Shown here: positions 17,123 through 39,177 of the stretch, piece by piece
Position numbering within the stretch: position 1 is the first letter of the stretch
Layout: every line of letters starts with the position of its first letter
Assembly (NCBI GenBank): GCA_937896295.1
Contig: CALBME010000086.1
Location: 1 to 39,177 of the forward strand
Source of the DNA: an uncultured Micavibrio sp.
GTDB lineage: Bacteria; Pseudomonadota; Alphaproteobacteria; Micavibrionales; UBA1664
Reading direction: 5' to 3'
DNA: 39,177 nucleotides
Position numbers and translations under genes: made by a program
Notes under the pieces: generated by a model
Databases searched by the model: none
What the model was told of the DNA's origin: nothing
Seen by the model: only the letters and a program-made list of their open reading frames with translations

Positions 17123-17129
17123 ACAAGCT

Positions 17130-18531: not shown

Positions 18532-18539
18532 CCGGTCTT

Positions 18540-18558: not shown

Positions 18559-18590
18559 ATCTTCTCTCAAAACCGCCCAAATGCCCCATC

Positions 18591-21807: not shown

Positions 21808-22830
21808 TTAAAAGAGACCGGAAGGGCCGAGCGGCGCACCATCCGCTGGCGATGCGCTGGGCGGGGGTGCCGGCTGGCCCTCCACCGGCATCGGACCGGG
21901 CGTTGATGCGATGGGGGGCGGTGTGTTGCCGTCCACGCTGCCGCCTGTGGCGTTGGCCACGATATTCGCAGCCGCGGCGCGGGCCTCACTTGTCGAACCG
22001 TTTGCGCCGCTGGGCAGGTTGCCCGTATCGACACCGGATGATGACAACGCCTCGGCCAGCGGATTGATCGCCTGCATATTTGCGTTGCTGTCTTCTTCGC
22101 CGGGTGCCGGACGCAATTTGATCATCTCGCCGTCCATGGACACACGGACATCGCCCGGGCGGACGCTTTCAACGACCGTGCCATCCGGCAGGCGTGTACC
22201 GGCATGAACGGTATACCGAATGGTGGGATCGGTGGAATGCACAAGAACGCCTTTGCATTCGCCGGCAAGGCAGGTCAGTTCTGCCCATTTATAACGGGTC
22301 TTGCGGGCTTCGATTTCGGCAAGGCGCGCTTTTTCTTCGGCCTCTCTCTTCTTGCGGGCGGCCATTTCCTCGTCGGACTCGCCTTTTTTGCGGTCGGGTT
22401 CAGCCTCTTTGGCTTTCACGACCATGTCCTGGTAATATTTTTTACGCTCCGCGACCAGGTCGCTGTAAAGCTCGGGATAGGCGGCAAGGCAGGGACCGTT
22501 GGCGGGCAGTTGCTCGCAAATGCCGCGCGGCGGCGGCGGGGCCGGGAAGCTTACCCCCATGCCGCCATAGGCCTCGACGATCTTGTCGAGTGCGGACTGG
22601 CGCATGACCAGCTTGTCGAGCAGGCTGATCTGGTAATTCAGCTTCATCGTATCGGACAGATACGGGTTGCCGATCGCATAAAACGAATCGTCAAAATCGA
22701 CACCCAGATTGGCGATTTCATCGGCGGTGATGATCTGCGGAATGGCAAAGGGTGGCATTTCTTGGGCCTTCGCGCCGCCGGAAAATACCAAGCCACTGAT
22801 AAATAAAGACAATATTGCTAAATGGCGCAT
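21808..22830 (-). CDS. secreted protein with a PilP-like C-terminal domain (second copy)
   Basis: Signal peptide 'ILSLFISGLVFSGGAKA/Q'. A charged coiled coil, then 'YKWAELTCLAGECKGVLVH...GTRLPDGTVVESVRPGDVRVSMDG', which parallels the C-terminus of the PilP-like protein at 31448-32275. Confidence 0.6.
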   Translation of the reverse strand: MRHLAILSLFISGLVFSGGAKAQEMPPFAIPQIITADEIANLGVDFDDSFYAIGNPYLSDTMKLNYQISLLDKLVMRQSALDKIVEAYGGMGVSFPAPPPPRGICEQLPANGPCLAAYPELYSDLVAERKKYYQDMVVKAKEAEPDRKKGESDEEMAARKKREAEEKARLAEIEARKTRYKWAELTCLAGECKGVLVHSTDPTIRYTVHAGTRLPDGTVVESVRPGDVRVSMDGEMIKLRPAPGEEDSNANMQAINPLAEALSSSGVDTGNLPSGANGSTSEARAAAANIVANATGGSVDGNTPPPIASTPGPMPVEGQPAPPPSASPADGAPLGPSGLF

Positions 22831-22876
22831 CGAATGAATCCCTGCTCACCATTATAAGCGAAAACAGGGGCCACTT

Positions 22877-24382
22877 CTACGGCCCAGCGCAACCGTCAAA
22901 GCATTGGCCGAAATTGCTGATATTCAGGGTGCGAATATTCACGCGCGGCGCGGTAATGGTCCGCTCCCGCCCCGGGCCTGTACCGCCAAAGACAAGGTCG
23001 CCCGAATTTCTGATATCAATGACGCCGGCCTTGCCGTTCGCCACGTTGATATTGCCCTGGGTCACGATACCGCTGCGCAGCTGGTTGTCGACCAGCAGCG
23101 ATTGTGATGCAACCGACGTGGCCGACAGGCGATGGGCATCGACCGTGCCAGCTGTCAGCACCCCGCCATCCGGCATGGTCAGGACGGTGTTGTTGGTATT
23201 CGTCAGGTTGCCGGTGGCGACTGTCGAACCGTCAAGGAAACGGGCGTTGTTGGTCACCTCGACCAGGTCCTGCGTACCCATGCCGTCATTGCCGTCACCA
23301 TCCACGATCAGATGGTTCTGGGCGTTATAATCCTGTTTTTCAGTATCAGTCAGCGCGTTTTCGATACGCAGGTTATTCGTGCGCGACGTATCCGCAATCA
23401 GGGCTGAACCGTTCACGCTCATCGTATTGCTGACGGTGGCTGACCCCTTGACGATGGCCGTGCCACTGACGCACAGGACATTGTTTTCACAATCCGCATG
23501 AAGACCGGGATTGGACGCGGCTGTAAGGGCGCGCGCTGAACCGTCATTACCGATATTGATATCGTCGCCGCCAAAAATATCGTTACCGCCAAGATTGAGT
23601 GGACCGAACATCGTATTGCGGCGCAGGGCGGGATCGACGTCCGGCAGGCGGTGCAGGTAATCACCGCCGACTTCTTCGATGTTTTTGTACATGTAATAGA
23701 CGAAATAACTGCCGTCTTCGAGGGAATCGAGGTCCGGATTAAGGTTGTTGATGTACCACGCCGTGTTTTGCAGGCCATCGCTCGGGTTGATCTGCCACGA
23801 TCCGAACGCGCTTTCGATGCGGGCGTCCGTCTTCGCGCCGTAACTGCGGATGAAGCCGCCATGTGGTCCGGCCTCTGTAGCGGCTGTGCGCACCTGGCTG
23901 TCGGGTCGTGGTGTGGTGGTGATGATCATCACGTCCAGTGCCGGGTCATCATTGGGATCGGCCCGGTCATCCGCCACGCGCAGCAGGATGCGCACATTGG
24001 AGCGAATGGGCGCATAGTCGCGGAACTGCGGGTTAAACAGACGCGACCCCTGAATGGTCACGCCATTCACGACAAAATTCTTGGTGATGTTGTTGGTGGC
24101 GGGCGCGGTCTGGTCGGCAATCAGCTCATAGCCGCCATTGCCGACGGCGGGATCGGCCGCTGCCTGGTAAAGCGCGTTGAAATTATCCAGATCCTGCAGG
24201 ATAAGGTTCATCGACTCCGCGATGGTGTTCATGTACTTGGCATTCGACCGCGCCATTTCGCGTTCACCGAATGTCTGCAGCAGAAGGAAAACTGCAATCA
24301 TCAGCGCGAAGACGACCCCGACGGACAGGATCATCTCCAGCAATGAAAAACCAGCCGTGTGTCTGCGTCTTTTGATCATCAT
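22877..24382 (-). CDS. large PilV-like minor pilin / putative adhesin (501 aa)
   Basis: Prepilin N-terminus 'RRRHTAG/FSLLEMILS' with Glu5. 'YLHRLPDVDPALRRNTMFGPLNLGGNDI' resembles the shufflon-protein constant-region motif. T/N/G/V-rich repeat-like C-terminal half. Confidence 0.75.
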   Translation of the reverse strand: MMIKRRRHTAGFSLLEMILSVGVVFALMIAVFLLLQTFGEREMARSNAKYMNTIAESMNLILQDLDNFNALYQAAADPAVGNGGYELIADQTAPATNNITKNFVVNGVTIQGSRLFNPQFRDYAPIRSNVRILLRVADDRADPNDDPALDVMIITTTPRPDSQVRTAATEAGPHGGFIRSYGAKTDARIESAFGSWQINPSDGLQNTAWYINNLNPDLDSLEDGSYFVYYMYKNIEEVGGDYLHRLPDVDPALRRNTMFGPLNLGGNDIFGGDDINIGNDGSARALTAASNPGLHADCENNVLCVSGTAIVKGSATVSNTMSVNGSALIADTSRTNNLRIENALTDTEKQDYNAQNHLIVDGDGNDGMGTQDLVEVTNNARFLDGSTVATGNLTNTNNTVLTMPDGGVLTAGTVDAHRLSATSVASQSLLVDNQLRSGIVTQGNINVANGKAGVIDIRNSGDLVFGGTGPGRERTITAPRVNIRTLNISNFGQCFDGCAGP

Positions 24383-26130
24383 GAACAGCTGTAAGAGTGA
24401 TAGGCCTGACCGGAATTACCGGTACTGCGCGTAAACGTGCATTCACCGTAGTACTGCCAGCCATACAATGTGTTGCGCCAGTACTGACACATATATCCTG
24501 TGCCTGTGCCCCAGCAATTATCATAGACGGTATTACCAAGGTAATAGGTCGAACCGCGCGGCTCGCAATAGGTACGGCCATTCGTATGGGCGACGCATTC
24601 AATCTGGCGCGCGGCACCGCTGGGCGTGTTCATATTCGGATCGCTGTACCCGCCGGGGGCCTGCGCATTATCAAGATAAAGAATGGCGCTGTTGCCCGGC
24701 GCGTCCGCGGTAACGTTTGCGGCGGCCAGCCGTCCGGTCAGCTGGACGCCGTTGCCGACTTCCATCTGGTTGGTACTGAACTGGAAGGCGGGGCCGGGGG
24801 CCGCCCGTGCCATGACCAGCTGATTGGACGTGGCGCCGTTGGTGACAGACATGTTGCCCGCCTGATATTGCTCCGCAATGATGCTGCCGCCGGTGATGTT
24901 GGTGGTGGGTGCAAGCGCGGTGGTGCTGGTGTTCATCGTCGCGCCGGTCACCGTATCAAAGGTGGAAATGCCCGCGACGTTCGTCGTGTTCTGCACATTC
25001 GTAAAATCGGTGATGACGTTGCCCTTGGCGACCATGTTGTTGGCAACCATCATACGGCCGTCGCCGCCTGCCTCGCCCACTGTCTGGATCTCGCCACCGC
25101 TGATGGCGCATCCCGATCCGCTCAAGACGCGGTTGCCGCCATCGACAGCCGCTGAAAAGCTGCAGCCTGCTGTGGGGGTTTTCATGTTCAGGCGTACGTC
25201 ACCGCCCGTATCGATACGCAATGCCTGTTCCACCGTCATGGCCTGTGCTGTGTCGGCCGCAGCCCCTTGCGCCTGACCGCGGAAAGCCGCGTTGCCTTCT
25301 ACCAGGAATTTGTCCGCGATGACCGTGCCGGTGTTCTGCAGTTCATTGGCGTTCATGTCCAGGTTCGTCTGCATCCGGTTCAGTTCAGGACGTCCGTCGA
25401 TCTGCACGCGGTACAGCCAGTGATCGTTGGCATCCGAAAATTCTGAACTGACCAGATCGTAGGTCGCCAGATACCCGCCATCCGTATCGGGTGTGGCGGC
25501 ATAACCCGCCGCTGCCAGTGCCGCGCGCGGCACCGACCATTGATTGAGAACTGACGCCACAACGTTGGTGAAAGTCATGCTGGGCATGACCAGATCGGCG
25601 GAAATGCCCATCGCGGGGCCGCCTGCTGTAGCAGCATCGATAAGACGCTTGTTTCCTGCGCGGACGACATCGCCGGGTGGGTTGTCTGAAACCACGACCA
25701 CCTCGATCGTGGTCAGGATGATGAAATTACCGAATGAATCCATCATCGCGTTGCCGGCAGTGTCGATTTTATTGACCTGCAGGTTGCGGCGGAAAACACG
25801 CATCTGCTGGCGGAATGCGTTTATGGGTTCGTAAGCCGACGGCAGGTAGTTATCCGGCTTCATGTCGTCGACGTCGATTTCCTGGAATATGTTCGGCGGA
25901 TCGGCGCTGAACGTATCGAAATTGGCAAGCACGTAGTCATGCGCCGCCGTCCGCAGGCGCAGCATGTCTGTCGCCGCCTGCCTGTTAATCGCCCGCTCGG
26001 TCCATGAATTGAATATACCGTACATTCCTGCCAGCAGCAGGCCAAGAACGCCAATCGACAACAGCAGTTCCAGCAGGGTGAAACCTGCCTGTCTGTGCGC
26101 GTGGGTACCTGTATATCTCTTCATATCCAT
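24379..26130 (-). CDS. large PilV-like minor pilin / putative adhesin (583 aa)
   Basis: Prepilin N-terminus 'HRQAG/FTLLELLLS' with Glu5, and 'WLYRVQIDGRPELNRMQTNLDMNANELQN'. Cys/Tyr/Trp-rich C-terminal module. ATGA overlap with the next gene. Confidence 0.75.
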   Translation of the reverse strand: MDMKRYTGTHAHRQAGFTLLELLLSIGVLGLLLAGMYGIFNSWTERAINRQAATDMLRLRTAAHDYVLANFDTFSADPPNIFQEIDVDDMKPDNYLPSAYEPINAFRQQMRVFRRNLQVNKIDTAGNAMMDSFGNFIILTTIEVVVVSDNPPGDVVRAGNKRLIDAATAGGPAMGISADLVMPSMTFTNVVASVLNQWSVPRAALAAAGYAATPDTDGGYLATYDLVSSEFSDANDHWLYRVQIDGRPELNRMQTNLDMNANELQNTGTVIADKFLVEGNAAFRGQAQGAAADTAQAMTVEQALRIDTGGDVRLNMKTPTAGCSFSAAVDGGNRVLSGSGCAISGGEIQTVGEAGGDGRMMVANNMVAKGNVITDFTNVQNTTNVAGISTFDTVTGATMNTSTTALAPTTNITGGSIIAEQYQAGNMSVTNGATSNQLVMARAAPGPAFQFSTNQMEVGNGVQLTGRLAAANVTADAPGNSAILYLDNAQAPGGYSDPNMNTPSGAARQIECVAHTNGRTYCEPRGSTYYLGNTVYDNCWGTGTGYMCQYWRNTLYGWQYYGECTFTRSTGNSGQAYHSYSCS

Positions 26131-26133
26131 GTC

Positions 26134-27942
26134 TTACGGCGTAATGTTTGGCGGGACATACTGACGGTCGGCGCAGGCGTTCGCTACGTTTGCACCTTCC
26201 AGGCAGCGCCCGGTGGTGTTGATGATGGGCAGCGGCGCGTTACGGTCCGCATTACTGGTTGTACCGGCGCTCACCAGCGCATTTCCGGCCAGGAACTGAA
26301 GGTCGGCATTGCTGCCGCCCGGCTGCGCGCTGGTCACATTGATGGTGCCCGTATCGGCGATTTCACCGGCGATGGCGGTATAGGCTGAAGGCACGCCGCC
26401 GTTCATGATCGGCGTACTGCCCACCACGGTCGCGGTTGAATTGCTTAAATTCAGGGTGTTTGTGATCTGTGCCTGTGTACCGGTGCTGTCTGTAACGTGG
26501 ACCTGCGCACTATTGCCGGTCATCGTATCGGTAATCAGTTCGGCTGTGACGCCGCCGCCAAAATTCCGGACCATCATGTTTCCGGACAGGTTGGTGGATG
26601 TGGTGACGTTCATCTGCGCGGGGCCGGTGGTCGTGCCTGCGCTGATGGAATCAAAGGTCGGCGTATCCAGTCGGTCGCTGACCAGTGCGTTGGCTTCGCT
26701 GATGGAACCGATCAGGGCATGACCCTTTGCCGCCACGTTGTTGGAATAGGCATAGGCATTGCGTTCCACAACCAGTGTGCCATTGGGGACGTTAAAGCGG
26801 TCATTCACGCCCGCAGGCAATGCGCGGGTATTGTAGACGCGCAGGTCACTGCCCAGGGCGATATTACCGTTCACGCGCATGGAATCGTCGTTACCGTTAC
26901 CGATGAAAACATTGGTATCACCGCCGAAATCGGCGGTCTGCGGCATGGCTACAAGGCGCTGTGCCTGGATATTGGCGACATGGTTGATGTTGTAACGCAG
27001 GTCAGTGGTGGCGGAATCCGACAGCGCGTCGCACACATTGGTGGTTTCCTGATATGTGGCGCCGGCCGCATTCGTTGCCGTAAATTGCACCTGATTGGAT
27101 GTCAGTGAACAATCGCCCGTCGGCGTTCCCATGCCAAGATCGGTCAGCATGGTGGCGTAGCCGGGATTTTCCGGCTGCGGAAAGCGTAAAACCGCGCGTA
27201 AATCCGGTTGAACGGCCTTCCACGCCGGCATGATCAGCGCACCGGGTTCAAGCACTGTCGGGCCGCCAAGGGGCGCCACAAGCGCGGCGAATTCATCGGG
27301 ACGCAGGCAGCCTGTATCCCAGATGGCCGCCGCCGGGCCGCCGCCGCGGCAATCTGCCGAAACGTTGGTGTCGGTGCTGTCAAACAAGGGGGCGGTGATG
27401 GCGACGTTTTCTTTTCGGATGGCGGCGACCATTTCAACCGTCAGGTTTTTGGCGCCTTTACCGCCCGGTGCGTAATACACGAATGCCGAAGGCACGGTTG
27501 CGGGGTCCGTCGGTGACGATGCAATACCGTTCGGGCCCCAGTTGGCCATGATGATAAAGACAGGCATGTTCAGTGCGTTGATCTGCTGGCCGCCGGCATC
27601 GACGCGTCCGAAATTACCAGGCAGGTAACCGTCCGCAATCAGTGTCGCCAGCGGAATGGATGTTGGCGTGGCGGCAGTGGCGCGCAATGTGGCATCGGCG
27701 GCATAACGGTCGCGCATGTAAAGACGCGCGGCCTTGGCGATCTCGACCAGTTCCCATCCGGCGACACGCGCCTCTATCTTGCGGACTTCAAAGCTGCTGA
27801 AACGGGCAATGGTGACAAGGATGGCACCGAAGAAGGCGACAAAAATCAAAGCCAGTAAAAGCGAAATGCCTTTCTGGTCCCTTCTCCCTGCGCACAAGGG
27901 AGGCGTGATGGCTCTGACGGCCTTTATACGTCTCCGTGTCAT
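26134..27942 (-). CDS. large pilin-like protein lacking Glu5 (602 aa)
   Basis: Basic leader, then 'KG/ISLLLALIFVAFFGAILV', a hydrophobic pilin-type helix with Leu at position 5. T/N/G-rich C-terminal half like its two neighbours. Its stop lies 3 nt before the next start. Confidence 0.65.
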   Translation of the reverse strand: MTRRRIKAVRAITPPLCAGRRDQKGISLLLALIFVAFFGAILVTIARFSSFEVRKIEARVAGWELVEIAKAARLYMRDRYAADATLRATAATPTSIPLATLIADGYLPGNFGRVDAGGQQINALNMPVFIIMANWGPNGIASSPTDPATVPSAFVYYAPGGKGAKNLTVEMVAAIRKENVAITAPLFDSTDTNVSADCRGGGPAAAIWDTGCLRPDEFAALVAPLGGPTVLEPGALIMPAWKAVQPDLRAVLRFPQPENPGYATMLTDLGMGTPTGDCSLTSNQVQFTATNAAGATYQETTNVCDALSDSATTDLRYNINHVANIQAQRLVAMPQTADFGGDTNVFIGNGNDDSMRVNGNIALGSDLRVYNTRALPAGVNDRFNVPNGTLVVERNAYAYSNNVAAKGHALIGSISEANALVSDRLDTPTFDSISAGTTTGPAQMNVTTSTNLSGNMMVRNFGGGVTAELITDTMTGNSAQVHVTDSTGTQAQITNTLNLSNSTATVVGSTPIMNGGVPSAYTAIAGEIADTGTINVTSAQPGGSNADLQFLAGNALVSAGTTSNADRNAPLPIINTTGRCLEGANVANACADRQYVPPNITP

Positions 27943-28030
27943 GATACCATATTGTAGATTAAGGGGATTAAGACTTTGTGAACTCTTGATAAATTCTACC
28001 TGAATCGCTTTTTAAAGGGATGGAAAAAGC

Positions 28031-28062
28031 ACAAAGAAAAGAGGCCCCGAAAAGGGGCCTCT
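28031..28062 (-). terminator. Rho-independent terminator / attenuator after the major pilin gene
   Basis: On the minus strand: AGAGGCCCC-uuuuc-GGGGCCUCU followed by UUUCUUUGU. Lies 29 nt after the pilin stop. Confidence 0.65.
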
Positions 28063-28090
28063 TTGTATTCAAGTCCTTGAAAGACCGGTC

Positions 28091-28648
28091 TTACTGGAAG
28101 GTCCAGGTCATTTCGTTGTTGGCGGCGGTGTCAGAGCAGGCTGCGGTCATCTGAGCCTGGGTGATTGCACCGGACGTCTGGTCAAAGGTCGTGCCACCGG
28201 CAACCAGCGAGATAAAGTCGTTGGCGTTCTGTGCACTGAACTGTTGGCCCAGGCGGATGCATGCACCGCGCGGAACGTTGGTAAACACGATTTCAAAGCG
28301 GTTGTCTTGAGCATTGACTTCAACCGGGCCGAACGGGCCTTTTGCAGTCATTGCAGCGCCGGCGCCGTTGGTACCGAGATCCGACGGAAGCGCGCGCATG
28401 TCAGCGAGTTCTCCCAGGATGTTGGCGTTGGCAGCACCGTATGTGGATTGCCCCTGATAAGCCTGCTGAACCTGTTGTTTCAGCGTAGTCAGAAGACGGG
28501 TGGCTTGGTTGGTATTGTTATTTTCCGAGACAAGGCGGTAAGCGCCGAGACCGGCGAGGATAAGGACCGCGCCGACGGCAACAACCAGCAGCAACTCGAG
28601 AAGTGAGAAGCCGGACTGGCGGCGTGTATTAGGGCAATTGATTTTCAT
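28091..28648 (-). CDS. pilS: type IV major pilin (R64 PilS-like, type IVb)
   Basis: 'MKINCPNTRRQSG/FSLLELLLVVAVGAVLILAGLGAY' prepilin cleavage/methylation motif with Glu5. C-terminal Cys pair (GACIRL...AACSD). Codon usage suggests high expression. Symbol follows R64 nomenclature. Confidence 0.85.
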   Translation of the reverse strand: MKINCPNTRRQSGFSLLELLLVVAVGAVLILAGLGAYRLVSENNNTNQATRLLTTLKQQVQQAYQGQSTYGAANANILGELADMRALPSDLGTNGAGAAMTAKGPFGPVEVNAQDNRFEIVFTNVPRGACIRLGQQFSAQNANDFISLVAGGTTFDQTSGAITQAQMTAACSDTAANNEMTWTFQ

Positions 28649-28711
28649 GTGTTTTTTTCTCCAGGCTTTCAGAATAGGCGGATTCGCCTAAAAATTTATT
28701 AAACTACGAAC

Positions 28712-28739
28712 ATTCTGATCTATTTGTTGAAACTGTCAA
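28712..28739 (-). promoter_or_regulatory. candidate sigma-70-type promoter for the pilin gene
   Basis: Minus strand: TTGACA, 16-nt spacer, CAGAAT. About 60 nt upstream of the pilin ATG in a 148-nt AT-rich spacer. Confidence 0.3.
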
Positions 28740-28796
28740 TGCGTCACAAGTACCTCATTTGATTCAATTTTTGGTGTGACAATTTGTGCCGGATCT

Positions 28797-29876
28797 TTAT
28801 TCCTGCGACGTCTGAATCTGCTGGAATACCGAGTAAAACGAGATAATCAGGCAGCCGATGACAATGGCGATCAGGATCAGGATGACGAAATTGACGATTT
28901 TCATCGCCGTATTGACCTTCTCGACCAGCCCGTCCACCCACGTATTAGTGACGCGGATCAGGTTCTGGTCGAATCCGCGCAGGCGGGCGTAAATCTGAAG
29001 ATCGCCGATAATTTCGGCATCCGGGAATTCATATCCCGTGTTGAACAGGGCGTCGCCCAGGTTTTCGCCACCGGCGATATATTTCTGCAGGGCTTTGACG
29101 CGCTGTTTCAGGTAAGGCGATGACAGGCGGCTGATACGCTGCAGACTGACCTCGTCCAGTTTGACCCCTGCCGACATCAACGACGCGATAGAAAGCAGGA
29201 ACGCCGAACCCTGCCACATCTTATACATGCTGTATGGCACCATCCGGTCGGCATAAATGCGCGCCTTTCCGGTCCAGCGCGGCATGGACATACTGACCGT
29301 CACAATGACGCCGCACACACCCATGAGAATGAACAGGCCCTGTTCACGGATGAATCGCGCCGCGATGGCGACACCGTAAGCGACGCCCTCCCATTTATCG
29401 ACGGGAATGATCTGCTCGAACGTCGGAATCACCTTGAAGGATGACAGCACCATGGCCGCCACCAGCATGGCGACCAGCACGGCCGGGTATGCGCCGGCGG
29501 TGATGATCGCCTTTTTGATCTTGCCCTGGTTTTCGATGGCATCGGCCGCATTGTGCAGGGATTTGAGGAGTTTGCCCGAGTTCGCGCCGGTTTCGATCAG
29601 GATGGCTTCGGCGCTGGGAACATAGGGGCCGACACACTGGCCGAAGTTCATGCCTTCCGCCACGTTGTTACGCCATTTTTTATACAGTTTGGGCAGGGCC
29701 GAGCGCGGCTTGTTGCGCGCGGCAATTCTGCCGATTTGCGCCAGCGCCGTATCAAGCGACACACCGTTCTCGAGCAGTTGCATCAGCTTGATGTAAAATT
29801 TCTGCCGCTGCTCTCCGCTGAACTCCATTTTAACGGAGAGATTGAACCAGGTGTCTGTCTTGCGCTTTTTGGCCAT
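28797..29876 (-). CDS. pilR: type IV pilus inner-membrane platform protein (GspF/PilC family; R64 PilR equivalent)
   Basis: 359 aa with a cytoplasmic helical domain plus three or more TM segments. Lies directly after the GspE-type ATPase. Symbol follows R64 nomenclature. Confidence 0.85.
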   Translation of the reverse strand: MAKKRKTDTWFNLSVKMEFSGEQRQKFYIKLMQLLENGVSLDTALAQIGRIAARNKPRSALPKLYKKWRNNVAEGMNFGQCVGPYVPSAEAILIETGANSGKLLKSLHNAADAIENQGKIKKAIITAGAYPAVLVAMLVAAMVLSSFKVIPTFEQIIPVDKWEGVAYGVAIAARFIREQGLFILMGVCGVIVTVSMSMPRWTGKARIYADRMVPYSMYKMWQGSAFLLSIASLMSAGVKLDEVSLQRISRLSSPYLKQRVKALQKYIAGGENLGDALFNTGYEFPDAEIIGDLQIYARLRGFDQNLIRVTNTWVDGLVEKVNTAMKIVNFVILILIAIVIGCLIISFYSVFQQIQTSQE

Positions 29877-29894
29877 GGGTATCGTCCCTTTCGC

Positions 29895-31448
29895 CTATCC
29901 GCGCTTGGGAAGAATGATCGGACCCACGATACGCTCGGCATCGCCCGGGTCCACTTCGCCTGCACGCAGGCGATCGACCATATGCTCCATCATGTTTTTA
30001 CCGTTCAGCGATGTCAGCCAGTATTGCTCGGCGTCCTGCTTCTGGTCGCGGCGCACCATATCCATGAACGTGTTGTCGGGAATGATGATTTCCGAGACGA
30101 CGGTACGGCTTGAATAACCAGTACTGTTGCATTTCGGGCAACCCTGCGGGTTACGCTTGCGCAGGCGTTCCACGGGCACCTGCGCGGCTTCAAGGCGCGC
30201 CAGCAGGTTGTAGTTAAGCTCTTTTTCCTCGATCGGCAGGCAGCATGACTTGCACAGTTTGCGAACCAGGCGCTGTGAAATCATACCCGTCATCAGCGTG
30301 GGATCGCACAGCTTGTATTCCTCGACCTCAAGGTCACGCAGACGGAAAGGAATGGTGATCGCATCGTTGGAGTGGAGCGACGTCCACACTTGGTGGCCGG
30401 TCATCGCGGCTTCAAACGCAAGGCCGGCGGATGCGGCGTCGCGCACCTCACCGATCATGATACGGTCCGGGTTCGAACGCATGGCGGCGGCGATGGCCTT
30501 GGTGAACTGGGCCGCACGCTCTTCCTGCGTGTTGGCGTTGGTCACCGGCATCTGCACGGCGCCCTGAATCGGGTATTCCGGCGGATCTTCCACGGTGTAG
30601 AAGGCGAGGTTGTAATTATATTCCTTCAGAATCGCGATGATGTTCCGCTGCAGGGTCGTGGATTTGCCGTGACCCGTGGGGCCTGCGACCACGTTGATGC
30701 CATACGGCTTGGAGCGCAGGAACTCGAAATCCTCCAGCTGCTCGGGCGTGAAACCGAGGGCCGCGACGTCACCGGCGGTTTTGTCGTCGGTGTTGTACAG
30801 GATACGCAAAATCATTGCGCGACCGTCATAAACGGTCGGGTTGAACTGCAGACGAAGGGAAATCACGCCCTCCGGCAACTGCAGGTCCTTACGGTTCGAA
30901 ACCCGCGCACCCTGATATTCATAGGGCTGGTAGTTGACGTCGGCGGCATCCGCCATGGTGAACGCGGCGGCGCAGAAGCTATGGCCGTATTCCGGCGGCC
31001 ATTCGGCGATGTGTTCCATGGCGCCCGCGACCCGCGCGCGTACAAGGCAGCTTTGTTCATAGACGACAACGTGAATATCCGAAACCCGGCGCTTGGCCAT
31101 GTCACCAACGAGGTTCAACACCTCGCGGCGCATCCGCACCTCGTCCTGTTTGGAACGGAAGTCGAAAGATCCGGCCGTACGTTCGTACGAAAGCTGGACG
31201 CGGTTCAGTTCGACGCCTTCGATGACCGGCTCGGGGTAACCGTTTGCGCGGATCTCGGCGATCAGGGACAGGATATGCGGCGACGACCGGTGCGACTTGG
31301 ACACGATCATCTTACCGTCGATATAATAGGCGGCAATCTGGCGCAGGTTCTGGCCGCGATCCAGCGGCCCACCCTCCGCCGTCAGCGGTACGGCGGGATC
31401 CCAGTGGTCATTGGCTTTCTTCTTGCCTGGCAGAAGAGAAAACGCCAT
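29895..31448 (-). CDS. pilQ: type IV pilus assembly ATPase (GspE/PilB family; R64 PilQ equivalent)
   Basis: Walker A 'GPTGHGKST', Asp box 'VEDPPE', Walker B 'RIMIGEVRD', His box 'TGHQVWTSLH' and a tetracysteine 'CKSCC...CPKC'. TGATG overlap with the upstream gene. Symbol follows R64 nomenclature; this is not the type IVa secretin. Confidence 0.92.
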   Translation of the reverse strand: MAFSLLPGKKKANDHWDPAVPLTAEGGPLDRGQNLRQIAAYYIDGKMIVSKSHRSSPHILSLIAEIRANGYPEPVIEGVELNRVQLSYERTAGSFDFRSKQDEVRMRREVLNLVGDMAKRRVSDIHVVVYEQSCLVRARVAGAMEHIAEWPPEYGHSFCAAAFTMADAADVNYQPYEYQGARVSNRKDLQLPEGVISLRLQFNPTVYDGRAMILRILYNTDDKTAGDVAALGFTPEQLEDFEFLRSKPYGINVVAGPTGHGKSTTLQRNIIAILKEYNYNLAFYTVEDPPEYPIQGAVQMPVTNANTQEERAAQFTKAIAAAMRSNPDRIMIGEVRDAASAGLAFEAAMTGHQVWTSLHSNDAITIPFRLRDLEVEEYKLCDPTLMTGMISQRLVRKLCKSCCLPIEEKELNYNLLARLEAAQVPVERLRKRNPQGCPKCNSTGYSSRTVVSEIIIPDNTFMDMVRRDQKQDAEQYWLTSLNGKNMMEHMVDRLRAGEVDPGDAERIVGPIILPKRG

Positions 31449-32275
31449 CAGCTTTTCACCCAGTCCAGCGGCTTGACGCCTTTGTCATCACGAATGGTCA
31501 CACCTGCCGGCGTCACGCGCACAACGGTGGTCTTGCCGTCCGGCAGCTTGGCGCCGGTCTTGGCGCGGATTTCATCGCCCTCGGGGCTGACCAGCTTGGC
31601 TTCGACGCCGCCGCCCGCGCTGTAAATTTCACGGATCGTCCAGGGCATGGCCGGTTTTTCAGGCTCTGCCGCCTTCGCCGGCGCTTCGTTGTCCGCAGGC
31701 GCGCTGGAAGGTGCGGGCATGCTGGGCACCGGGCGGCCCTGCGCGATGTTCGGTCCGACATCGGCACCGGCAAGCGCGTTGGCAGGCAGGGGCATCAGGC
31801 CCATGCCGCCCGCGCGTTGTGCGCCTGCCATGCCGGGAGGGGCTTGCAGGCCCAGCGCCGCATCCGCGGCGGCGACGTTTTTGACAACGCTTTCGTTCAG
31901 GCGTTCAAGCAGCTGCGCGCGCTGGACGCACAGCGTGAAACGGTCGATATCTTCCTGCACCTTGGCCAGATCGTCGGGCGACGCGTTCAGCGCGGCTTCC
32001 GGCGCGGGGCACGGATCGGTGGCGGGCGGTCCGTCGTTCTGAACCGTTTTCGGCTGTTCGGGCATGCCGGATGAAGCTGCTGCCTGTTGTTGCGGGGCTG
32101 CAGCCTGCGCCTGTCCCTGGTCTTGCGGCTGCTCCAGCGTGGGGGCTGCTGACGCGCCCGGTGCGTTCAGTTGGGATTCGTCGGGCGCGGCAACGTCCTG
32201 CGCATGGGCGCCTGCGGCAAACGTGATAAACGCAGCCGCTGTCAAAAGACGAAAAAGGGCGGTTCGTGATGTCAT
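31448..32275 (-). CDS. pilP: PilP-like pilus biogenesis protein (R64-type)
   Basis: Signal peptide 'AFITFAAGAHA/Q', a Q/A/P-rich linker, and the C-terminal domain 'PWTIREIYSAGGGVEAKLV...GAKLPDGKTTVVRVTPAGVTI'. Confidence 0.7.
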   Translation of the reverse strand: MTSRTALFRLLTAAAFITFAAGAHAQDVAAPDESQLNAPGASAAPTLEQPQDQGQAQAAAPQQQAAASSGMPEQPKTVQNDGPPATDPCPAPEAALNASPDDLAKVQEDIDRFTLCVQRAQLLERLNESVVKNVAAADAALGLQAPPGMAGAQRAGGMGLMPLPANALAGADVGPNIAQGRPVPSMPAPSSAPADNEAPAKAAEPEKPAMPWTIREIYSAGGGVEAKLVSPEGDEIRAKTGAKLPDGKTTVVRVTPAGVTIRDDKGVKPLDWVKS

Positions 32276-32287
32276 CGTTTTTACTCC

Positions 32288-32995
32288 TTAATTTGCGTTC
32301 GCGGCCAAAAGCTGGCGCGCTTTGGAATTGGCGGCAATCAGGCGGGCGTCGGGGCGCAGGATCAGCTTGGCGCTGTAAACCCAGATTCCGTCGCTGACGC
32401 TTGTCGACATGTTCAGGAACACAAGTCCCGGCAGGTCGAAATATTTTCCGATCATGTTCGGCGGCGTGCTGCTCTTCAATTCGATGGCCAGGTACGGCAT
32501 GTCATCGCGGGTCAGCGGCTTCAGTTCAACCTTGTCTTTACCGATCGCGTTAAAGCCGGACTGTTGAATCATCTCCACACTCTGGACCAGCTGCTGGCTG
32601 GCTGCCGGCACGACCTCCCGCAGGGTGATCTGGCCGATATTCGCAAACCGCTTGGTCAGGATGATGATAGCATAACTTCTGTCCAAAAGCTCCTGTGCTT
32701 CGGTCGGCTCAAGCTTCGCGGTCAGACGGCGGTTGGCGATAAGGTTCTGCGAATCGGCAAAATTACGGGTCACGCCTTCGGGGAAACGCGACAGGTACGG
32801 CTCCACCATTTCATAAGACCCGATCTGGCGGTTCCAATTCCCCTCGACGATTGTGTCTTTGCAGCGCAGGGTTACCATTTTCCAGCCCGGCAACGGCACG
32901 GCCAGCGCGGCAAAGCCGTCGAGACAGCTGTTCATCTGTTCGCTTGGTACCAGCAATCCCATCTTGGTCAGGGACATGCCGCTTTCTTCCTGCAC
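32288..32995 (-). CDS. PilO-like protein, C-terminal (periplasmic) part; probably the downstream half of a frameshifted gene
   Basis: No signal peptide or TM of its own. Its reading frame stays open far upstream into the preceding ORF. GTG (32995) or ATG (32977) start if it is independent. Confidence 0.55.
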   Translation of the reverse strand: MQEESGMSLTKMGLLVPSEQMNSCLDGFAALAVPLPGWKMVTLRCKDTIVEGNWNRQIGSYEMVEPYLSRFPEGVTRNFADSQNLIANRRLTAKLEPTEAQELLDRSYAIIILTKRFANIGQITLREVVPAASQQLVQSVEMIQQSGFNAIGKDKVELKPLTRDDMPYLAIELKSSTPPNMIGKYFDLPGLVFLNMSTSVSDGIWVYSAKLILRPDARLIAANSKARQLLAANAN

Positions 32996-33807
32996 AACGC
33001 TTGGTTCTTTCGGAGGGACCTGCAGTACGTCGGACGACTCGATACCCGGCAGGGGCAGCTGCGCCTCATCGGTACCAGCGACGTCAGAAGGCTTTGCCCC
33101 GCAATCGACACGACCAGCAGCACGACGATGGTTGCGATCGCGCCAAACGCCAGGTTCTTGTTGCGCTTGCCCGAAAAAATAGCATCCAGGTTGACGGGCT
33201 TGAGGATGGATGGCGGCGCCTCGCCAATGACGCGGGAAAGCGGAATTTCACCGGTCGCATCCGGCACGTTCCACGATTCCGGCGCATAGGCGCGCGGCCA
33301 GCGGAATGCTTCGCCCTGCGCCATGAAATGGTTATAGGCGGCTTCTTCGGATGAAAACAGGATATCGCCGTCCGGGGCGATGTTGTCCGAGTGAACGGCG
33401 ACATACCACCAGCCATTGTCGGCTACGAAAACGGCGTGCCACTCGCCGACAAGCGCATCCGCCGCGACGGACGCCAGTGCCGACTGGCCCAGCCGGTGGC
33501 CTTTGCGCAGGTAACCGAAACCATGCTGCGTGACCACGCCCTGACGCATGGTATAGAAATCGGCTTTGAATTCCTTCGCGCGGCCCTTGGCCAGGGCTGT
33601 GTCGCCCTCGTCATCCGCGATCAGCCAGTTGAGACCGACGGCATAACGCTTGTTGTCGTAAAGAAGAATGCCTTCGCCGCTGGGGCCCTTGGCGGGTTGG
33701 GCGGTGATTTCCTCATGCACCGCCGCCTCAGCCTCAGCCATATCCAGTGGCTCATCGAGATCGATGTCCAGGAAATCCTTGTCGCTGTTGTCGTCGTTGC
33801 GGGCCAT
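32968..33807 (-). CDS. PilO-like pilin accessory protein, N-terminal cytoplasmic domain plus TM; the last ~35 codons look out of frame
   Basis: Acidic N-terminus and a globular domain ('YAVGLNWLIADDEGD...WWYVAVHSDNI'). TM helix 'LAFGAIATIVVLLVVSIAG', then an implausible Arg/Cys-rich tail. Confidence 0.6.
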   Translation of the reverse strand: MARNDDNSDKDFLDIDLDEPLDMAEAEAAVHEEITAQPAKGPSGEGILLYDNKRYAVGLNWLIADDEGDTALAKGRAKEFKADFYTMRQGVVTQHGFGYLRKGHRLGQSALASVAADALVGEWHAVFVADNGWWYVAVHSDNIAPDGDILFSSEEAAYNHFMAQGEAFRWPRAYAPESWNVPDATGEIPLSRVIGEAPPSILKPVNLDAIFSGKRNKNLAFGAIATIVVLLVVSIAGQSLLTSLVPMRRSCPCRVSSRPTYCRSLRKNQALCRKKAACP

Positions 33808-33826
33808 GAACGGTTTCCCCGGCTCC

Positions 33827-35425
33827 TTACTGGTTGCCGATCACCGTGATCGGATCTTCCGGCAGGATCTCCGAAGTAATCAGCATCACCGTAACTTCGC
33901 GGTCGCGGTTGGTGTTTTTGCTTCCGCCCAGGATCGGCAGGTACGGCGTACCCTGATCCGTCTTGGAATTGAGTTTCTTCTCAAAGCCCGCCAGAACCAG
34001 CGTCTCGCCCGAAGTGACGACGGCGTTCTGCAGGAAGCCGGTCGTTTCCACTTCAGGCAGCTGGATCGACGCAGCCGAGTCGCCCGAACCGGACGTAAAC
34101 GTTGCGAAAGGTTGTTGCGCATCCGTGATGGCGACTGAAAGACGCATCAGGATTTTGTTGCCCTCAACAATACGCGGCAGGATCGTCATCATAAGGCCGG
34201 TGTTGACCGTGCCGGGCTCGAGGCTGACCGAACCGCCGGTATCGCCCGAAGTCGACGAGGTGCGTTTCAGGTAGCTGATCTGGCGGCCAACCTGCAGCGG
34301 CGCGGGCTGGTCGGACAGCGTAACGATGGCGCCGGAATGGGCGACGGATGCGCGCGTGACGTTGCTGTTCGCCTTGAATTCGGCGAGCAGGCGGTCGGTG
34401 CTGACCTGGGTGGCGACCGCCGTATCTTGTGGTGCGCGGATGACGCCCAGCGCAAGGCCGGACGTGGCGCCGCCGATGCTGCGTACTGATGTCATGCCGA
34501 ACGCGCGGCGGACAATGCCGGTGACGTCTGCCGAAAGGTCGAGGTCGTTGTTCGCGGTCACCGAAATGACTTTCACGGCGATGGCCACGCGGCGCAGGCG
34601 CATGCTGTTCTGCTGGTTCAGGTAAGCTTCGACGCGGCGGACGATGTCCGGCTCGCCGGTGACGGTGATGGTGCCCGTGCTGGGTGAAAACGCGGCCTTG
34701 CCGGCGTCGCCCATGATGGTGGAAACAGCGTCCTTGATTTCATCCCAGACTTTGAGGGATGCGCTGGAGGTCACGTCAACTTCCGGCAGGTTCGATGCCG
34801 AGTCGCCCGAGCTTCCCGATTTAACCGTGCCTTTATACGATAATTCGCTGGCCAGTGCGTGCAGCATGAAGGTGCGCGTGATTTGCTGCGCGAAATCGAT
34901 GCTGGTGCCGTCATAATGCCAATCGGCGTTGAAATAATCGGCTGCCTGATTCAGCAGGTCGGAAAGACGGCCCGACCATACGACGCGTCCGCCTGCGACC
35001 TGTTCGCCGTCGGTGGGCATGAAGGTTTTTTCCGTCGTGGTGGTGGCGGCGCTGAGCGACGTGCCCGTGGCGGCTGCGCGCAGGCCGGTAACGGCCTGCA
35101 CCATGCGCATCAGTTCTTCCATCGTCACCGGACGGGCAAAGGTCATGACGATGGCGTTTTGCGTTTCAAACTGCGGTGGCAGGGCCGAGCCGTTGGTGAT
35201 CGGCACTGCCGCCGAACCGTAATAGGGGTTGGAATCGATGGTCAGGGATTGCGCGACCGGATTTTTGGGGCTGATGTCGGTCAGAGCGCGGTCGGCGCTG
35301 ACGGTCATGTCCTCGTAATTCGTATCGACGGTGCGGACTTCGGCACAGGATGTCAGGCCCAGCCCTGCCGCGAACAGAAGGGCGGGAAGGGTCTTGGCGA
35401 AACCTTTGAAGGGCGAAAGCATCAT
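33827..35425 (-). CDS. pilN: outer-membrane lipoprotein secretin (R64 PilN / BfpB type)
   Basis: Lipobox 'GLGLTSC'. C-terminal secretin motif 'TLVLAGFEKK...GTPYLPILGGSKNTNRDREVTVMLITSEIL'. Start taken at the MM (35425) preceding the signal peptide; the ORF track starts at 35515. Confidence 0.85.
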   Translation of the reverse strand: MMLSPFKGFAKTLPALLFAAGLGLTSCAEVRTVDTNYEDMTVSADRALTDISPKNPVAQSLTIDSNPYYGSAAVPITNGSALPPQFETQNAIVMTFARPVTMEELMRMVQAVTGLRAAATGTSLSAATTTTEKTFMPTDGEQVAGGRVVWSGRLSDLLNQAADYFNADWHYDGTSIDFAQQITRTFMLHALASELSYKGTVKSGSSGDSASNLPEVDVTSSASLKVWDEIKDAVSTIMGDAGKAAFSPSTGTITVTGEPDIVRRVEAYLNQQNSMRLRRVAIAVKVISVTANNDLDLSADVTGIVRRAFGMTSVRSIGGATSGLALGVIRAPQDTAVATQVSTDRLLAEFKANSNVTRASVAHSGAIVTLSDQPAPLQVGRQISYLKRTSSTSGDTGGSVSLEPGTVNTGLMMTILPRIVEGNKILMRLSVAITDAQQPFATFTSGSGDSAASIQLPEVETTGFLQNAVVTSGETLVLAGFEKKLNSKTDQGTPYLPILGGSKNTNRDREVTVMLITSEILPEDPITVIGNQ

Positions 35426-35595
35426 GGACGTGTGGCCACCGGCTGGAGATGTTTTAAGAGAAAGACGAAATCTAGCGATCCCGCCTGCGTTATGACGACT
35501 CAAATTGTACGGCAAGCAAGCGCCCGAGAGAAGCGGAATTACAAGGGCCTAGGCGGCATATGAGCGCGGCGGCAGGGAAGATTGGGTGGGAATTT

Positions 35596-35622
35596 AAAAG
35601 GGGTCCGCGAAGGACCCCTTTT
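35596..35622 (-). terminator. Rho-independent terminator-like hairpin between the pilL-like and secretin genes
   Basis: AAAAGGGGTCC-5 nt-GGACCCCTTTT, an 11-bp stem with an integrated U run. Lies 7 nt after the pilL-like stop. Confidence 0.5.
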
Positions 35623-35628
35623 AAAGCG

Positions 35629-36816
35629 TTACATGCTGTTCTGGCGGGTTTCGATCACCAGCACGGCGGGGCCGTTCGGCAGGTTGGGGTGCAGGCGGCC
35701 CATCGGGCGCGGCTTGGAATCGTACAACCCCTTCAGAAGGACCTGTACGGCCTCCTCGAACGTGCCGTTGAGGGACACGCCCGACTGGACCGGATAGTCA
35801 TATTCCGAAGCCCAGTACAGCTCGACATCGGCGCGCTTGCTCCAGTCTTCCAGGATGCTGCGCAGGGTGGAATTGCGCGGCGCGGTCCAGGTGCTGTTGG
35901 CCAGCAAATCGGGGCGGCCGGCAGCCGCCGGGGCCGCATAGGCCGGTGCGGTCATGTCGTCGATCACGGCGGGCATGGCCATCGGTGCCATGGGCGCAGG
36001 CGCGGCGGAAATCATGGCCGGGGCCGGGGTCATGGTCGTCGTGGTGTTCGTCTGGATGGTCTGCGTCGCAACCGAAGGGCCGTTCATCGACGCCATCTGC
36101 AGCCCGCCGGTGCGGCTGATCGAAATGACGTTGCCGTTGATGGTGGCCTGCATGCCCATGGGGGCAAGGGTGTTTTGCAGGACAATGTCCCACGGCGCGC
36201 CGCCCTGCCATGAAATGTGCTGCTGGACGTCGATATTCTGGTCGAACACGAAACCATAGCGCGGCGGTACGATCTGACGGATCGCCATGACCAGCGGCAG
36301 GTCGCGGCCAAAGCCTTGCGCCACTTCGTACTGGCTATTGTTCATCGGTGACAGGAGATTGCTGTATCCGTCGATGCTGCCCGATACGGGGGCCGGAGCC
36401 TGCGCCACGATCGGCTGCGGCATGCCGTTGGTCTGCGGCGCGCGGGGGACGTAAACCTCGTTATTGCGCGAACGCTGCTGTTGCTGCATCGGCGCATTCC
36501 ACGTCACGGGGTCGTTGGTCATGCCCTGGCCGTAAATGGGCGCCGCGCTTGCCGGGCCGTCCGGCATGGTGGCGATGGGCGCGCCGGCCTGGATCGGCTG
36601 GCCGCTGGCAAGGGATTCGGACATGACGGGTGTAACCGGCGCTGCTGCCGAACGCGGCGCCATTTCTGGCGGGCGGGCGTTGCTGTTGCCGGGTGCGGCT
36701 GCCGACGGCGCGGGTGCCGTCCACTGGAAACCAGCCTGCGCGCTTGCGGCGGACAATACCAAAACAGATGCGGCGATCAGAACGCTGCGCACACGACCAT
36801 TCATCGATAACCTCAT
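35629..36816 (-). CDS. PilL/TcpQ-like periplasmic pilus protein
   Basis: Signal peptide 'VLIAASVLVLSAASAQA/G'. P/A/Q-rich linkers. An STN-like domain ('DLPLVMAIRQIVP...ISWQGGAPWDIVLQNTL') and a C-terminal TcpQ-like domain ('WTAPRNSTLRSILEDWSKRADVELYW...GTFEEAVQVLL'). Start is at 36816 or 36804; the ORF track starts at 36918. Confidence 0.6.
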   Translation of the reverse strand: MRLSMNGRVRSVLIAASVLVLSAASAQAGFQWTAPAPSAAAPGNSNARPPEMAPRSAAAPVTPVMSESLASGQPIQAGAPIATMPDGPASAAPIYGQGMTNDPVTWNAPMQQQQRSRNNEVYVPRAPQTNGMPQPIVAQAPAPVSGSIDGYSNLLSPMNNSQYEVAQGFGRDLPLVMAIRQIVPPRYGFVFDQNIDVQQHISWQGGAPWDIVLQNTLAPMGMQATINGNVISISRTGGLQMASMNGPSVATQTIQTNTTTTMTPAPAMISAAPAPMAPMAMPAVIDDMTAPAYAAPAAAGRPDLLANSTWTAPRNSTLRSILEDWSKRADVELYWASEYDYPVQSGVSLNGTFEEAVQVLLKGLYDSKPRPMGRLHPNLPNGPAVLVIETRQNSM

Positions 36817-36939: not shown

Positions 36940-37521
<582 letters not shown>

Positions 37522-39039: not shown

Positions 39040-39177
39040 TCGTACGGCCTCGGCTGGAGTTGGGACGGACCCGTGATCTGCAACGCACGGTCGCCCACGC
39101 GCATTTCCTTGCCGCCGCCGGTGACGCCGCCGCAAGGCAGGCCCTCGCGGAACGCCTGCGCCGCGATACCGCCGGCA
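39018..39177 (-). CDS. 3' end of an upstream gene truncated by the window edge (unknown; position expected for DotC/TraI)
   Basis: This frame has strongly G/C-biased third positions ('...AGGIAAQAFREGLPCGGVTGGGKEMRVGDRALQITG...'). It ends at a TAA at 39018-39020, overlapping the ATPase start by 22 nt. Confidence 0.45.
   Translation of the reverse strand, partial: AGGIAAQAFREGLPCGGVTGGGKEMRVGDRALQITGPSQLQPRPYEWQPASR

Follow-up and report, generated by a model that had tools for sequence, protein, structure and literature searches.

A 39,177-nt contig of an uncultured Micavibrio sp. (CALBME010000086.1, assembly GCA_937896295.1; this whole stretch is called the window below) carries on its minus strand what reads as a complete-looking type IVb pilus (T4bP) core beside genes of Dot/Icm type. 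We consider it very probable that this is a resident, functional T4bP of a Micavibrio-like alphaproteobacterium, whose pilus would hold another cell so that a Dot/Icm-like type IVB secretion system (T4BSS) can act. The locus (21808-36918, minus strand) is one unbroken run of 11 co-oriented open reading frames (ORFs) that encode, in this order, a TcpQ-domain PilL-like protein, a lipoprotein secretin, a PilO/BfpC-like protein, a PilP-like protein, an ATPase, a platform protein, the major pilin, three large pilin-like proteins (one of them PilV-like) and a secreted protein weakly similar to PilP. The initial annotation, made from the sequence alone, had listed these genes; the ORF run is present at the coordinates it gave, and profile matches now name the parts. 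It had also described the genes as tightly packed. This is true of the spacings of -4, -1, 3, 12, 18 (between the ATPase and platform genes) and 19 nt, but not of the gaps of 46, 148, 148 and ~203 nt in the same run. The window has a G+C content of ~58%, and its left 21 kb holds ordinary alphaproteobacterial genes (aroE, coaE, dnaQ, secB, a Tim44-like gene, an M29 peptidase gene, phoH, SCO1, flgK and flgL). However, the claim of an otherwise housekeeping backbone is wrong upstream, where dotD-dotC-dotB-icmT abuts the locus.

Performing profile searches (Pfam and NCBIfam) and comparisons with Protein Data Bank (PDB) sequences, we find that the best matches of the core proteins are of type IVb. 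The PilN/BfpB-type secretin (532 aa; 33827..35425; this and the following genes lie on the minus strand unless stated) has the lipobox LTSC. Its top score was for the TIGR02520 PilN family (208 bits, under the equivalog cutoff of 287.65), against 80 for MshL (cutoff 250), 43.8 for GspD (cutoff 351) and 37.7 for the PilQ subfamily (cutoff 284). Among PDB sequences it matched BfpB (9u5s) with 144.7 bits (E 4e-41) versus 31 bits for type IVa PilQ, and its homologues carry the JGI name 'R64 PilN family'. The PilQ/BfpD-type assembly ATPase (517 aa; 29895..31448; T2SSE 227 bits) matched BfpD (8dze) with 341 bits over residues 22-505, compared with 168 bits for GspE and ~160 for PilB/PilF; its NCBIfam scores were 218 for GspE (cutoff 630), 197 for PilB (cutoff 676) and 47 for TadA (cutoff 373). 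The PilR/BfpE-type inner-membrane platform (359 aa; 28797..29876) has two T2SSF repeats (65 bits) and scored 66 against GspF (cutoff 424). The major pilin PilS (185 aa; 28091..28648) matched PF08805 PilS (46.5 bits), Bundlin PF05307 (38.5 bits) and N_methyl (28.8 bits), the PilS and Bundlin scores both exceeding their cutoffs. Its signal is MKINCPNTRRQSG↓FSLLE, the mature N-terminus is nearly invariant among orthologues, and Cys130/Cys171 make up the D-region pair. In searches of PDB sequences with the pilins, only the generic N-terminal helix of geopilins was matched.

The accessory proteins point the same way. The PilL/BfpG/TcpQ-like protein (35629..36804, 391 aa as called, with alternative starts at 36816 or 36918) matched PF10671 TcpQ with 46.5 bits (cutoff 27) and was found by tblastn with BfpG (E 6e-7) and R64 PilL (E 0.007); as read from the sequence, its signal is of Sec type (…SAASAQA↓G) and lacks a lipobox Cys. 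The PilO/BfpC-like bitopic protein (32288..33807, frameshifted in this assembly) matched PAP_PilO with 24.8 bits, which is an unmarked match in the orthologues from the related loci L017 and L022, and the N-terminal domain of its intact version matched BfpC (3vhj; E 1e-5). The PilP-like periplasmic protein (275 aa; 31448..32275) had no match in a PDB sequence search; its C-terminal 78 residues scored 31.4 bits against TIGR03021 pilP_fam (cutoff 34.65), and this domain is alignable with R64 and plasmid PilP. The families anticipated by the initial annotation (Secretin, PAP_PilO, pilP_fam, T2SSE, T2SSF, PilS, Shufflon_N and TcpQ) were thus all recovered, with pilP_fam just under its cutoff. The locus combines a lipoprotein secretin, a BfpD/PilQ-type ATPase with its platform, a PilO/PilP/TcpQ accessory set and a PilS/bundlin-type pilin, all features of a T4bP, while T2SS (type II secretion system), type IVa, MSHA and Tad profiles stayed below their cutoffs.

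We measured identities by tblastn against R64 (NC_005014), pMAR2 with the bundle-forming pilus (BFP) genes, and two betaproteobacterial plasmids. The ATPase is 38% identical to that of a Hydrogenophaga plasmid, 37% to BfpD and 32% to R64 PilQ; the platform shows 36%, 31% (BfpE) and 26%, respectively. The secretin is 29-33% identical to plasmid PilN, 27% to BfpB and 26% to R64 PilN. The gene order L-N-O-P-Q-R-S…V matches R64 and the betaproteobacterial plasmid pil modules, as had been proposed, and the order is therefore conserved with known type IVb loci. Judged by these comparisons, the ATPase, the platform, PilO and a nearby transglycosylase are nearer to BFP than to R64, and the system as a whole stands no further from BFP than from R64. 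In its core this is an ordinary pilus; the host and the setting are unusual.

The setting is given by the dot/icm block upstream. The DotB/TraJ-like ATPase (386 aa; 37879..39039) scored highest against NCBIfam DotB (399.7 bits, under the cutoff of 463), followed by TraJ (244) and the PilT family (218), and shares 49% identity with Legionella DotB, 39% with the ATPase of plasmid pMTS3 and 31% with R64 TraJ. We did not adopt a PilT-type retraction ATPase for this gene, given 400 bits for DotB versus 218 for the PilT family and relatives with full T4BSS partners. Over 120 protein clusters are 75-94% identical to the DotB-like ATPase, on chromosomal contigs of up to 2.2 Mb. The icmT/traK-like gene (37530..37817) encodes a small membrane protein of 95 aa, whose identical counterpart on a 56-kb Logan contig of the same species (L003) scored 83.4 bits against NF038220 IcmT_TraK (cutoff 40) and also matched Pfam IcmT_2. 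DotB and the PilL-like protein are likewise identical between L003 and the window. On L003, a 298-aa PF16932 T4SS_TraI gene (259 bits) ends 22 nt inside dotB; positions 39018..39177 hold the 3' part of such a dotC/traI-like gene for a lipoprotein, the remainder of which falls outside the window. Beyond that end, L003 carries DotD (102 bits, cutoff 140, plus Pfam DotD). The order on L003 towards the pil genes is a DsbG-like thioredoxin, a 313-aa unknown, an SLT transglycosylase (41% identical to BfpH), DotD, DotC/TraI and DotB, and ahead of the DsbG-like gene stand the housekeeping genes pssA and psd with LOG-family, GGDEF and FIST genes.

The dotD-dotC-dotB-icmT genes are homologues of traH-I-J-K, genes of I-type type IV secretion systems (T4SSs). 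The annotated order on pMTS3 of Cupriavidus sp. P-10 (NZ_AP025174) is DotD/TraH, TraI-like, ATPase, TcpQ-family, PilN, PilO2, PilP, ATPase, T2SSF, pilin, ATPase and PilV, and between its first ATPase gene and its TcpQ gene there is an ORF without annotation that an icmT query matches. DotI, DotH and DotG of pMTS3 sit elsewhere on that plasmid. Since the same composite order occurs on pMTS3 and traH-K accompanies pil in R64, the window block is homologous to the known module of I-type mating-pair formation (MPF_I). A Bosea plasmid carries dotD-C-B-icmT without pil genes.

The locus behaves as a native part of its genome. The pil genes have a third-position G+C (GC3) of 0.726±0.043 versus 0.701±0.041 for 21 flanking genes (Mann-Whitney p 0.22), and their synonymous-codon fractions correlate with those of the flanks (r 0.978) as two halves of the flanking genes do with each other in a control split (r 0.981); the third-position bias is thus like that of the flanks, as the annotation had judged by eye. 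Its remark that no tRNA, integrase or repeats flank the locus also stands: we found no tRNA in the window, no integrase among the ORFs scanned and no long direct or inverted repeats at the locus borders. No Rfam family was found. Scanning one genome per species with the pil ATPase, we recovered seven loci, all from uncultured Alphaproteobacteria and several submitter-named Micavibrio, a genus that NCBI places under Pseudobdellovibrionaceae. Three of these (L005, L008, L009) have the same cluster order and the convergent flgL/flgK neighbour, with dotB-icmT directly upstream in L008 and L009; L017 (a 2.2-Mb contig) and L022 show the arrangement in full, down to the psd/LOG/GGDEF genes. The search of related genomes that the annotation had suggested therefore returned the same order and flank in five loci. 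The same locus with its flgL/flgK flank recurs in several species with proteins 45-96% identical. Protein by protein, the identities are DotB 75-94%, PilQ 70-96%, PilR 62-85%, PilN 48-80%, PilO 36-75% and pilins 31-70%. This fall in conservation from the ATPases to the pilins is the order expected of a working envelope machine.

Comparing the pil genes with a second strain (L002), we counted 155 synonymous and 11 non-synonymous differences (pN/pS, the ratio of non-synonymous to synonymous polymorphism, 0.024), the three genes without a family name included. The pil genes are under strong purifying selection. Native codons, conserved position and a pN/pS of 0.024 argue that the locus is resident and functional. 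The earlier description of a resident, ameliorated system is borne out by the native codon usage, the conserved flanks in several species, the housekeeping genes beyond both ends and the purifying selection. The whole dot and pil block is vertically inherited in the clade.

Two more distant relatives show more of a T4BSS. On a 1.77-Mb contig (L023), the order is thioredoxin, an unknown gene, SLT, DotD, DotC, DotB, IcmT and TcpQ, then four paralogous unknowns, then DotI (203 bits, above cutoff), DotH and DotG. A metagenome scan with the DotH of this contig returned 23 dotI-H-G loci. Among them an 865-kb contig (L039) has the order g340-like gene (a homologue of the last pil gene of the window), RNase J, flgL, flgK, two unknowns, DotI, DotH, DotG, TraQ-like, DotN and a TraU/DotO homologue of 994 aa (E 1e-101 to R64 TraU). 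In L043 and L045 flgK/flgL adjoin dotI-H-G; L025 and L029 have the cluster close to tim44/secB. A MacSyFinder survey reported relaxase-less T4SSs (pT4SSi) in seven marine Micavibrionales metagenome-assembled genomes (MAGs) and left type IV pili out (Needham et al. 2022; PMC9418006). A literature search found no paper linking Micavibrio with a T4BSS. On this sequence evidence, a Dot/Icm-type system is likely in this organism.

Some further observations were made on these contigs. The four tandem paralogues of L023 (12355-18307, minus strand; 411-563 aa) share 39-44% mutual identity and match no family; relatives of them stand beside flgL/flgK-dotI in L045 (1-3500), one with a faint TraW match (E 0.006). 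Just upstream of the thioredoxin-dot block, L023 has three pilin-like genes (693-3701; 382, 258 and 366 aa) with class III signals. The unknown proteins u385, u658, u254, u187 and u444 of the window were considered as T4BSS parts and rejected, as they showed no similarity to the T4BSS-linked proteins of L023 and L039.

Of the known systems, pMTS3 is identical in order from dotD to the major pilin, the icmT ORF included, and has PilV last; its secretin is 29% identical to that of the window, its DotB 39% and its DotC 37%. On pMTS3 a PilT-like ATPase follows the pilin, there is one PilV, and dotI/H/G are nearby on the same replicon, whereas the window is chromosomal with native codons and has three pilin-like genes of 501-602 aa, an extra PilP-like gene and no second ATPase in the pil cluster. 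R64 shares the L-N-O-P-Q-R-S…V order, the pilin after the platform, a PilQ of 517 aa, a PilN-family secretin, PilP, a Shufflon_N-type PilV and the link of the pilus to traH-I-J-K. However, protein identity to R64 is just 26-32%, and the R64 order is pilL-M-N-O-P-Q-R-S-T-U-V, while the window adds extra genes around PilV. PilI/J/K, PilM, the PilU peptidase, PilT, the shufflon and Rci of R64 do not occur in the window cluster; the window PilL-like protein, unlike R64 PilL, is not a lipoprotein; and in R64 traH-I-J-K follow pilV-rci-traEFG downstream, whereas the dot genes of the window lie upstream.

By sequence, the closest solved or characterised system is BFP of enteropathogenic Escherichia coli (BfpD 37%/341 bits, BfpB 145 bits, BfpE 31%), with further likeness in the BfpC N-domain (E 1e-5), in BfpH (41% to the upstream SLT protein) and in BfpG, which corresponds to the TcpQ domain; both loci have several minor pilins at the operon end. 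BFP differs in having its pilin gene first, its own peptidase BfpP, the retraction ATPase BfpF and small minor pilins (~160-180 aa), and it lies on a virulence plasmid with no T4SS neighbours. The likeness to the Dot/Icm systems of Legionellales consists of DotB (49% to Legionella DotB) and the presence of DotC, DotD and IcmT, with DotI, DotH, DotG, DotN and DotO in relatives; four dot genes are visible at the Micavibrio-like locus itself. We know of no T4bP attached to the Dot/Icm system in Legionella or Coxiella.

The three large pilin-like proteins follow the major pilin gene. The first (602 aa; 26134..27942) lacks Glu5 (…QKG↓ISLLLA…, read from the sequence), has no Pfam or NCBIfam match and has just 26 detectable homologues, all unnamed and all within this clade. 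Its AlphaFold model, built on the 26-sequence alignment, has a mean predicted local distance difference test (pLDDT) score of 61 and is confident at residues 26-245 only, where it shows a long helix (26-82) and an α/β domain to ~245, as in pilins; the β-rich rest is of low confidence. A Foldseek search of this model against the PDB gave nothing under E 1. The second is a PilV-like large minor pilin (583 aa; 24379..26130) with N_methyl and Shufflon_N matches (the latter 43.2 bits, cutoff 27.5). Over 322 aa it shares 26% identity with R64 PilV (E 5e-11); it keeps G↓FTLLE in orthologues and has 8 Cys in its C-terminus. The third (501 aa; 22877..24382) carries a class III signal, MMIKRRRHTAG↓FSLLE, that is kept in orthologues; it has no family match in Pfam or NCBIfam and resembles the 583-aa protein and PilS at the N-terminus only. 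Paralogy of the three was rejected, since they have the N-terminal helix alone in common. All three have Cys-rich ends, which would fit the DsbG-like gene heading the block. In T2SSs, the Glu5-less pilin GspK caps the pseudopilus. By analogy with GspK, the Glu5-less 602-aa protein is a candidate tip or initiator subunit, and the other two large pilins may be its partners.

The last gene of the run, convergent with flgL, encodes a 340-aa secreted protein (g340; 21808..22830) with a Sec signal and a weak PilP-like β-domain. The initial annotation called it an extra PilP-domain protein. The similarity to the 275-aa PilP-like protein is weak, with E 0.003 in BLASTP and, in hhalign, 66% probability (E 5.5e-5) over a 40-column β-motif, and the L039 orthologue matched pilP_fam with E 0.007; g340 itself has no Pfam or NCBIfam match, and a PDB sequence search was empty.

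The major pilin gene appears to have signals of its own. A predicted sigma-70-like promoter (28712..28739; TTGACA-16-CAGAAT, 10/12 matches) precedes it, and the TTGACAG…CA(G/A/C)AAT pair upstream of pilS is kept in 6/7 related loci. Right after pilS lies a terminator-like hairpin (28038..28064) with an 11-bp stem, 7 G-C pairs and a T-rich tail, which may act as an attenuator. The promoter-like site and the hairpin would fit high, separate expression of the major subunit.

We propose that this pilus probably grabs cells on behalf of a domesticated, conjugation-like machine. The prepilins would be cleaved by a peptidase encoded elsewhere. PilQ, PilR and PilO would assemble PilS into a fibre that grows from the inner membrane and passes through the PilN secretin, and the TcpQ-domain protein would help to position this secretin. 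The three large pilin-like proteins, among them the 602-aa one without Glu5, could initiate the fibre and act as adhesins at its tip. The pilus would then grip a prey or partner cell, enabling the action of a Dot/Icm-like T4BSS, so that adhesion to other cells would serve that system. The parallel is the R64 thin pilus, which holds recipients for the IncI T4SS during conjugation in liquid. T4bPs are known almost only from enteric pathogens (BFP; the toxin-coregulated pilus, TCP; CFA/III; Longus) and from conjugative plasmids or islands (R64, PAPI-1). A 2019 survey described them as a gammaproteobacterial feature with few outliers (PMC6668835). Here, an entire clade of uncultured Micavibrio-like Alphaproteobacteria inherits a T4bP vertically, on the chromosome and joined to Dot/Icm-type genes; this would be a case, found in nature, of a pilus and T4SS module of conjugation type that was retained once the DNA-transfer functions had been lost.

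R64 PilV binds the lipopolysaccharide of recipients. A bolder and rather doubtful extension is that the T4bP and Dot/Icm systems are halves of one domesticated IncI-like 'mating' apparatus that Micavibrio-like epibiotic predators use on prey in place of recipients: the large, fast-evolving tip pilins would bind glycans on the prey surface, the pilus would pull or hold the prey, and a relaxase-less T4BSS would inject effectors that kill it or open it for feeding. How epibiotic predators recognise, hold and breach their prey is an open question (2025 review, PMC12428579), and the locus supplies concrete candidates for predator-prey contact, namely the pilus, three clade-specific giant putative tip pilins and a nearby probable T4BSS. 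The link to predation would, if true, raise the interest of the locus.

Several observations weigh against a working pilus that serves a T4BSS. None of dotI, dotH, dotG, dotO, dotL and dotA turned up in the window or, in the closest relatives, within 10 kb, and the tim44-flgK interval of the window carries an M29 peptidase, GNAT, smr, phoH, SCO1 and five unknowns instead. As dotI-dotO lies beside flgK/flgL or tim44/secB in distant relatives and the window has other genes there (7900-18600), rearrangement or loss would account for this. The genome paper of M. aeruginosavorus ARL-13 reports no T4SS and an incomplete 'T2SS' without GspC/G/H/K, and the part of the ARL-13 expression table that was covered shows no dot block after the LOG-GGDEF genes and no matching gene run. 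A predatory lifestyle of the host rests only on the submitter names of the closest MAGs. On the pilus side, tblastn with R64 PilU and BfpP gave no prepilin peptidase, either for the window or for relatives' 10-kb flanks, and neither PilM nor a retraction ATPase of PilT/BfpF type was found in the locus or in those flanks. The MacSyFinder T4bP model treats the peptidase as mandatory but allows it to be a 'loner' (PMC6668835). The PilS leader has 13 aa (9-14 aa in orthologues) and the mature protein starts with Phe1 (FSLLE), as in type IVa pilins. In textbook T4bPs the leader is about 15-30 aa long and the first residue of the mature pilin is not Phe, and R64 PilS has such a long leader and non-Phe N-terminus; the major pilin of the window shows neither.

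The arrangement of some relatives also counts on that side. In L007, the same 11-gene pil cluster occurs without dot genes and is flanked by spoU, a cation diffusion facilitator (CDF) transporter gene, glucokinase, OmpA and MscL. In L014-L016, the dot block and the TcpQ gene are followed by housekeeping genes with no pilN-V beside them. The pil and dot blocks are thus separable, and a stand-alone pilus for adhesion or twitching, with the dotDCB-icmT adjacency as a historical leftover of the source mobile element, stays a serious rival, though clearly the less probable one. BFP, TCP and CFA/III work without any T4SS, and in the window a gene on the opposite strand for a TMEM175-type K+ channel (36940..37521, plus strand; PF06736 109.7 bits) parts icmT from pilL. 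This gene is missing between icmT and the TcpQ gene in four related species (L008, L009, L017, L022), which makes it a local, lineage-specific insertion outside the pilus system. However, the pil block stands next to the dot block in the window, in those four loci and on pMTS3; the BfpH-like transglycosylase and the DsbG-like gene, which a pilus would need, stand on the dot side; and the g340-like gene of L039 is ~8 kb from dotI-dotO. Apart from this, the secretin gene of L007 (6150-7821) is found in two ORFs (three tblastn segments), which may reflect assembly frameshifts or gene decay.

A pilus that is dead in this strain would be the consequence if the pilO frameshift were real, which we regard as improbable. 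A missing A next to 33066, where 'ATGAAGG' reads 'ATGAGG', splits the pilO-like gene into ORFs of 279 and 235 aa, and proteins of the PilO/BfpC class are required for assembly in R64 and BFP. But in two other assemblies of the same species (L001/L002), from which the window differs by this 1-nt deletion, pilO is a single ORF of 506 aa. Both halves together show 11 synonymous changes and 1 non-synonymous change, and the rest of the pil genes are undamaged. L001 has a frameshift of its own, in the TMEM175 gene (131 + 69 aa), and this makes an assembly error the more likely cause of the pilO split.

There is little to recommend a machine that mainly secretes proteins (hydrolases or g340), either as a T2SS-like pseudopilus or in the T4bP-dependent manner of TcpF/CofJ. 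In its favour, NCBIfam puts the ATPase highest on GspE, the incomplete 'T2SS' is counted in Micavibrio by the ARL-13 paper, g340 is secreted and encoded at the operon end, and T4bPs are reported to export TcpF via the minor pilin (PMC9565799). However, the GspE score of 218 is far under its cutoff of 630 and BfpD is favoured two to one in direct comparison. The secretin scored 44 bits for GspD versus 208 for the PilN family, GspC/L/M/I/J gave no matches in profile searches of the locus proteins, and the major subunit is of PilS/bundlin type with its own predicted promoter and terminator. Least probable of all, and very unlikely, is that the locus is what remains of an IncI-like conjugative element that had integrated, with a pilus that goes on stabilising mating pairs while DNA is transferred. 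In favour of this, an MPF_I plasmid has exactly this module order, R64 pairs pilL-V with traH-K and the PilV-like pilin has Shufflon_N. Against it, no relaxase, coupling protein, integrase, tRNA or border repeats were found in the 39 kb or in relatives' 10-kb flanks, and the IncI1 hallmark of a conjugative element with a relaxase and a full MPF_I set was not seen there. The locus has native codon usage and keeps its chromosomal position from species to species; no repeated sfx-like shufflon sites occur in the locus and no Rci homologue in the window or relatives' flanks, and the Micavibrionales systems are classed as relaxase-less pT4SSi (PMC9418006). The resident T4bP acting with a Dot/Icm-like T4BSS therefore remains the reading that we prefer.

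Some genes away from the pil run also drew our attention. In the window, a 658-aa ORF (11669-13645, plus strand) and a 594-aa ORF (11711-13495, minus strand) overlap almost fully, and neither has a family match; the plus-strand ORF was taken as the gene over its antisense counterpart. Two adjacent paralogues of the DUF6782 putative metallopeptidase family lie at 593-1912 and 1982-2872 (plus strand). In L014-L016, too, a DUF6782 gene precedes the dot block, a few kb upstream (L014 2338-3603), and a 396-aa protein between flgK and dotI in L039 (7368-8558) has weak similarity (E 0.002) to one of the window paralogues. The DUF6782 proteins are thus possible candidates for secreted proteins or effectors, although coincidence could equally explain the pattern.

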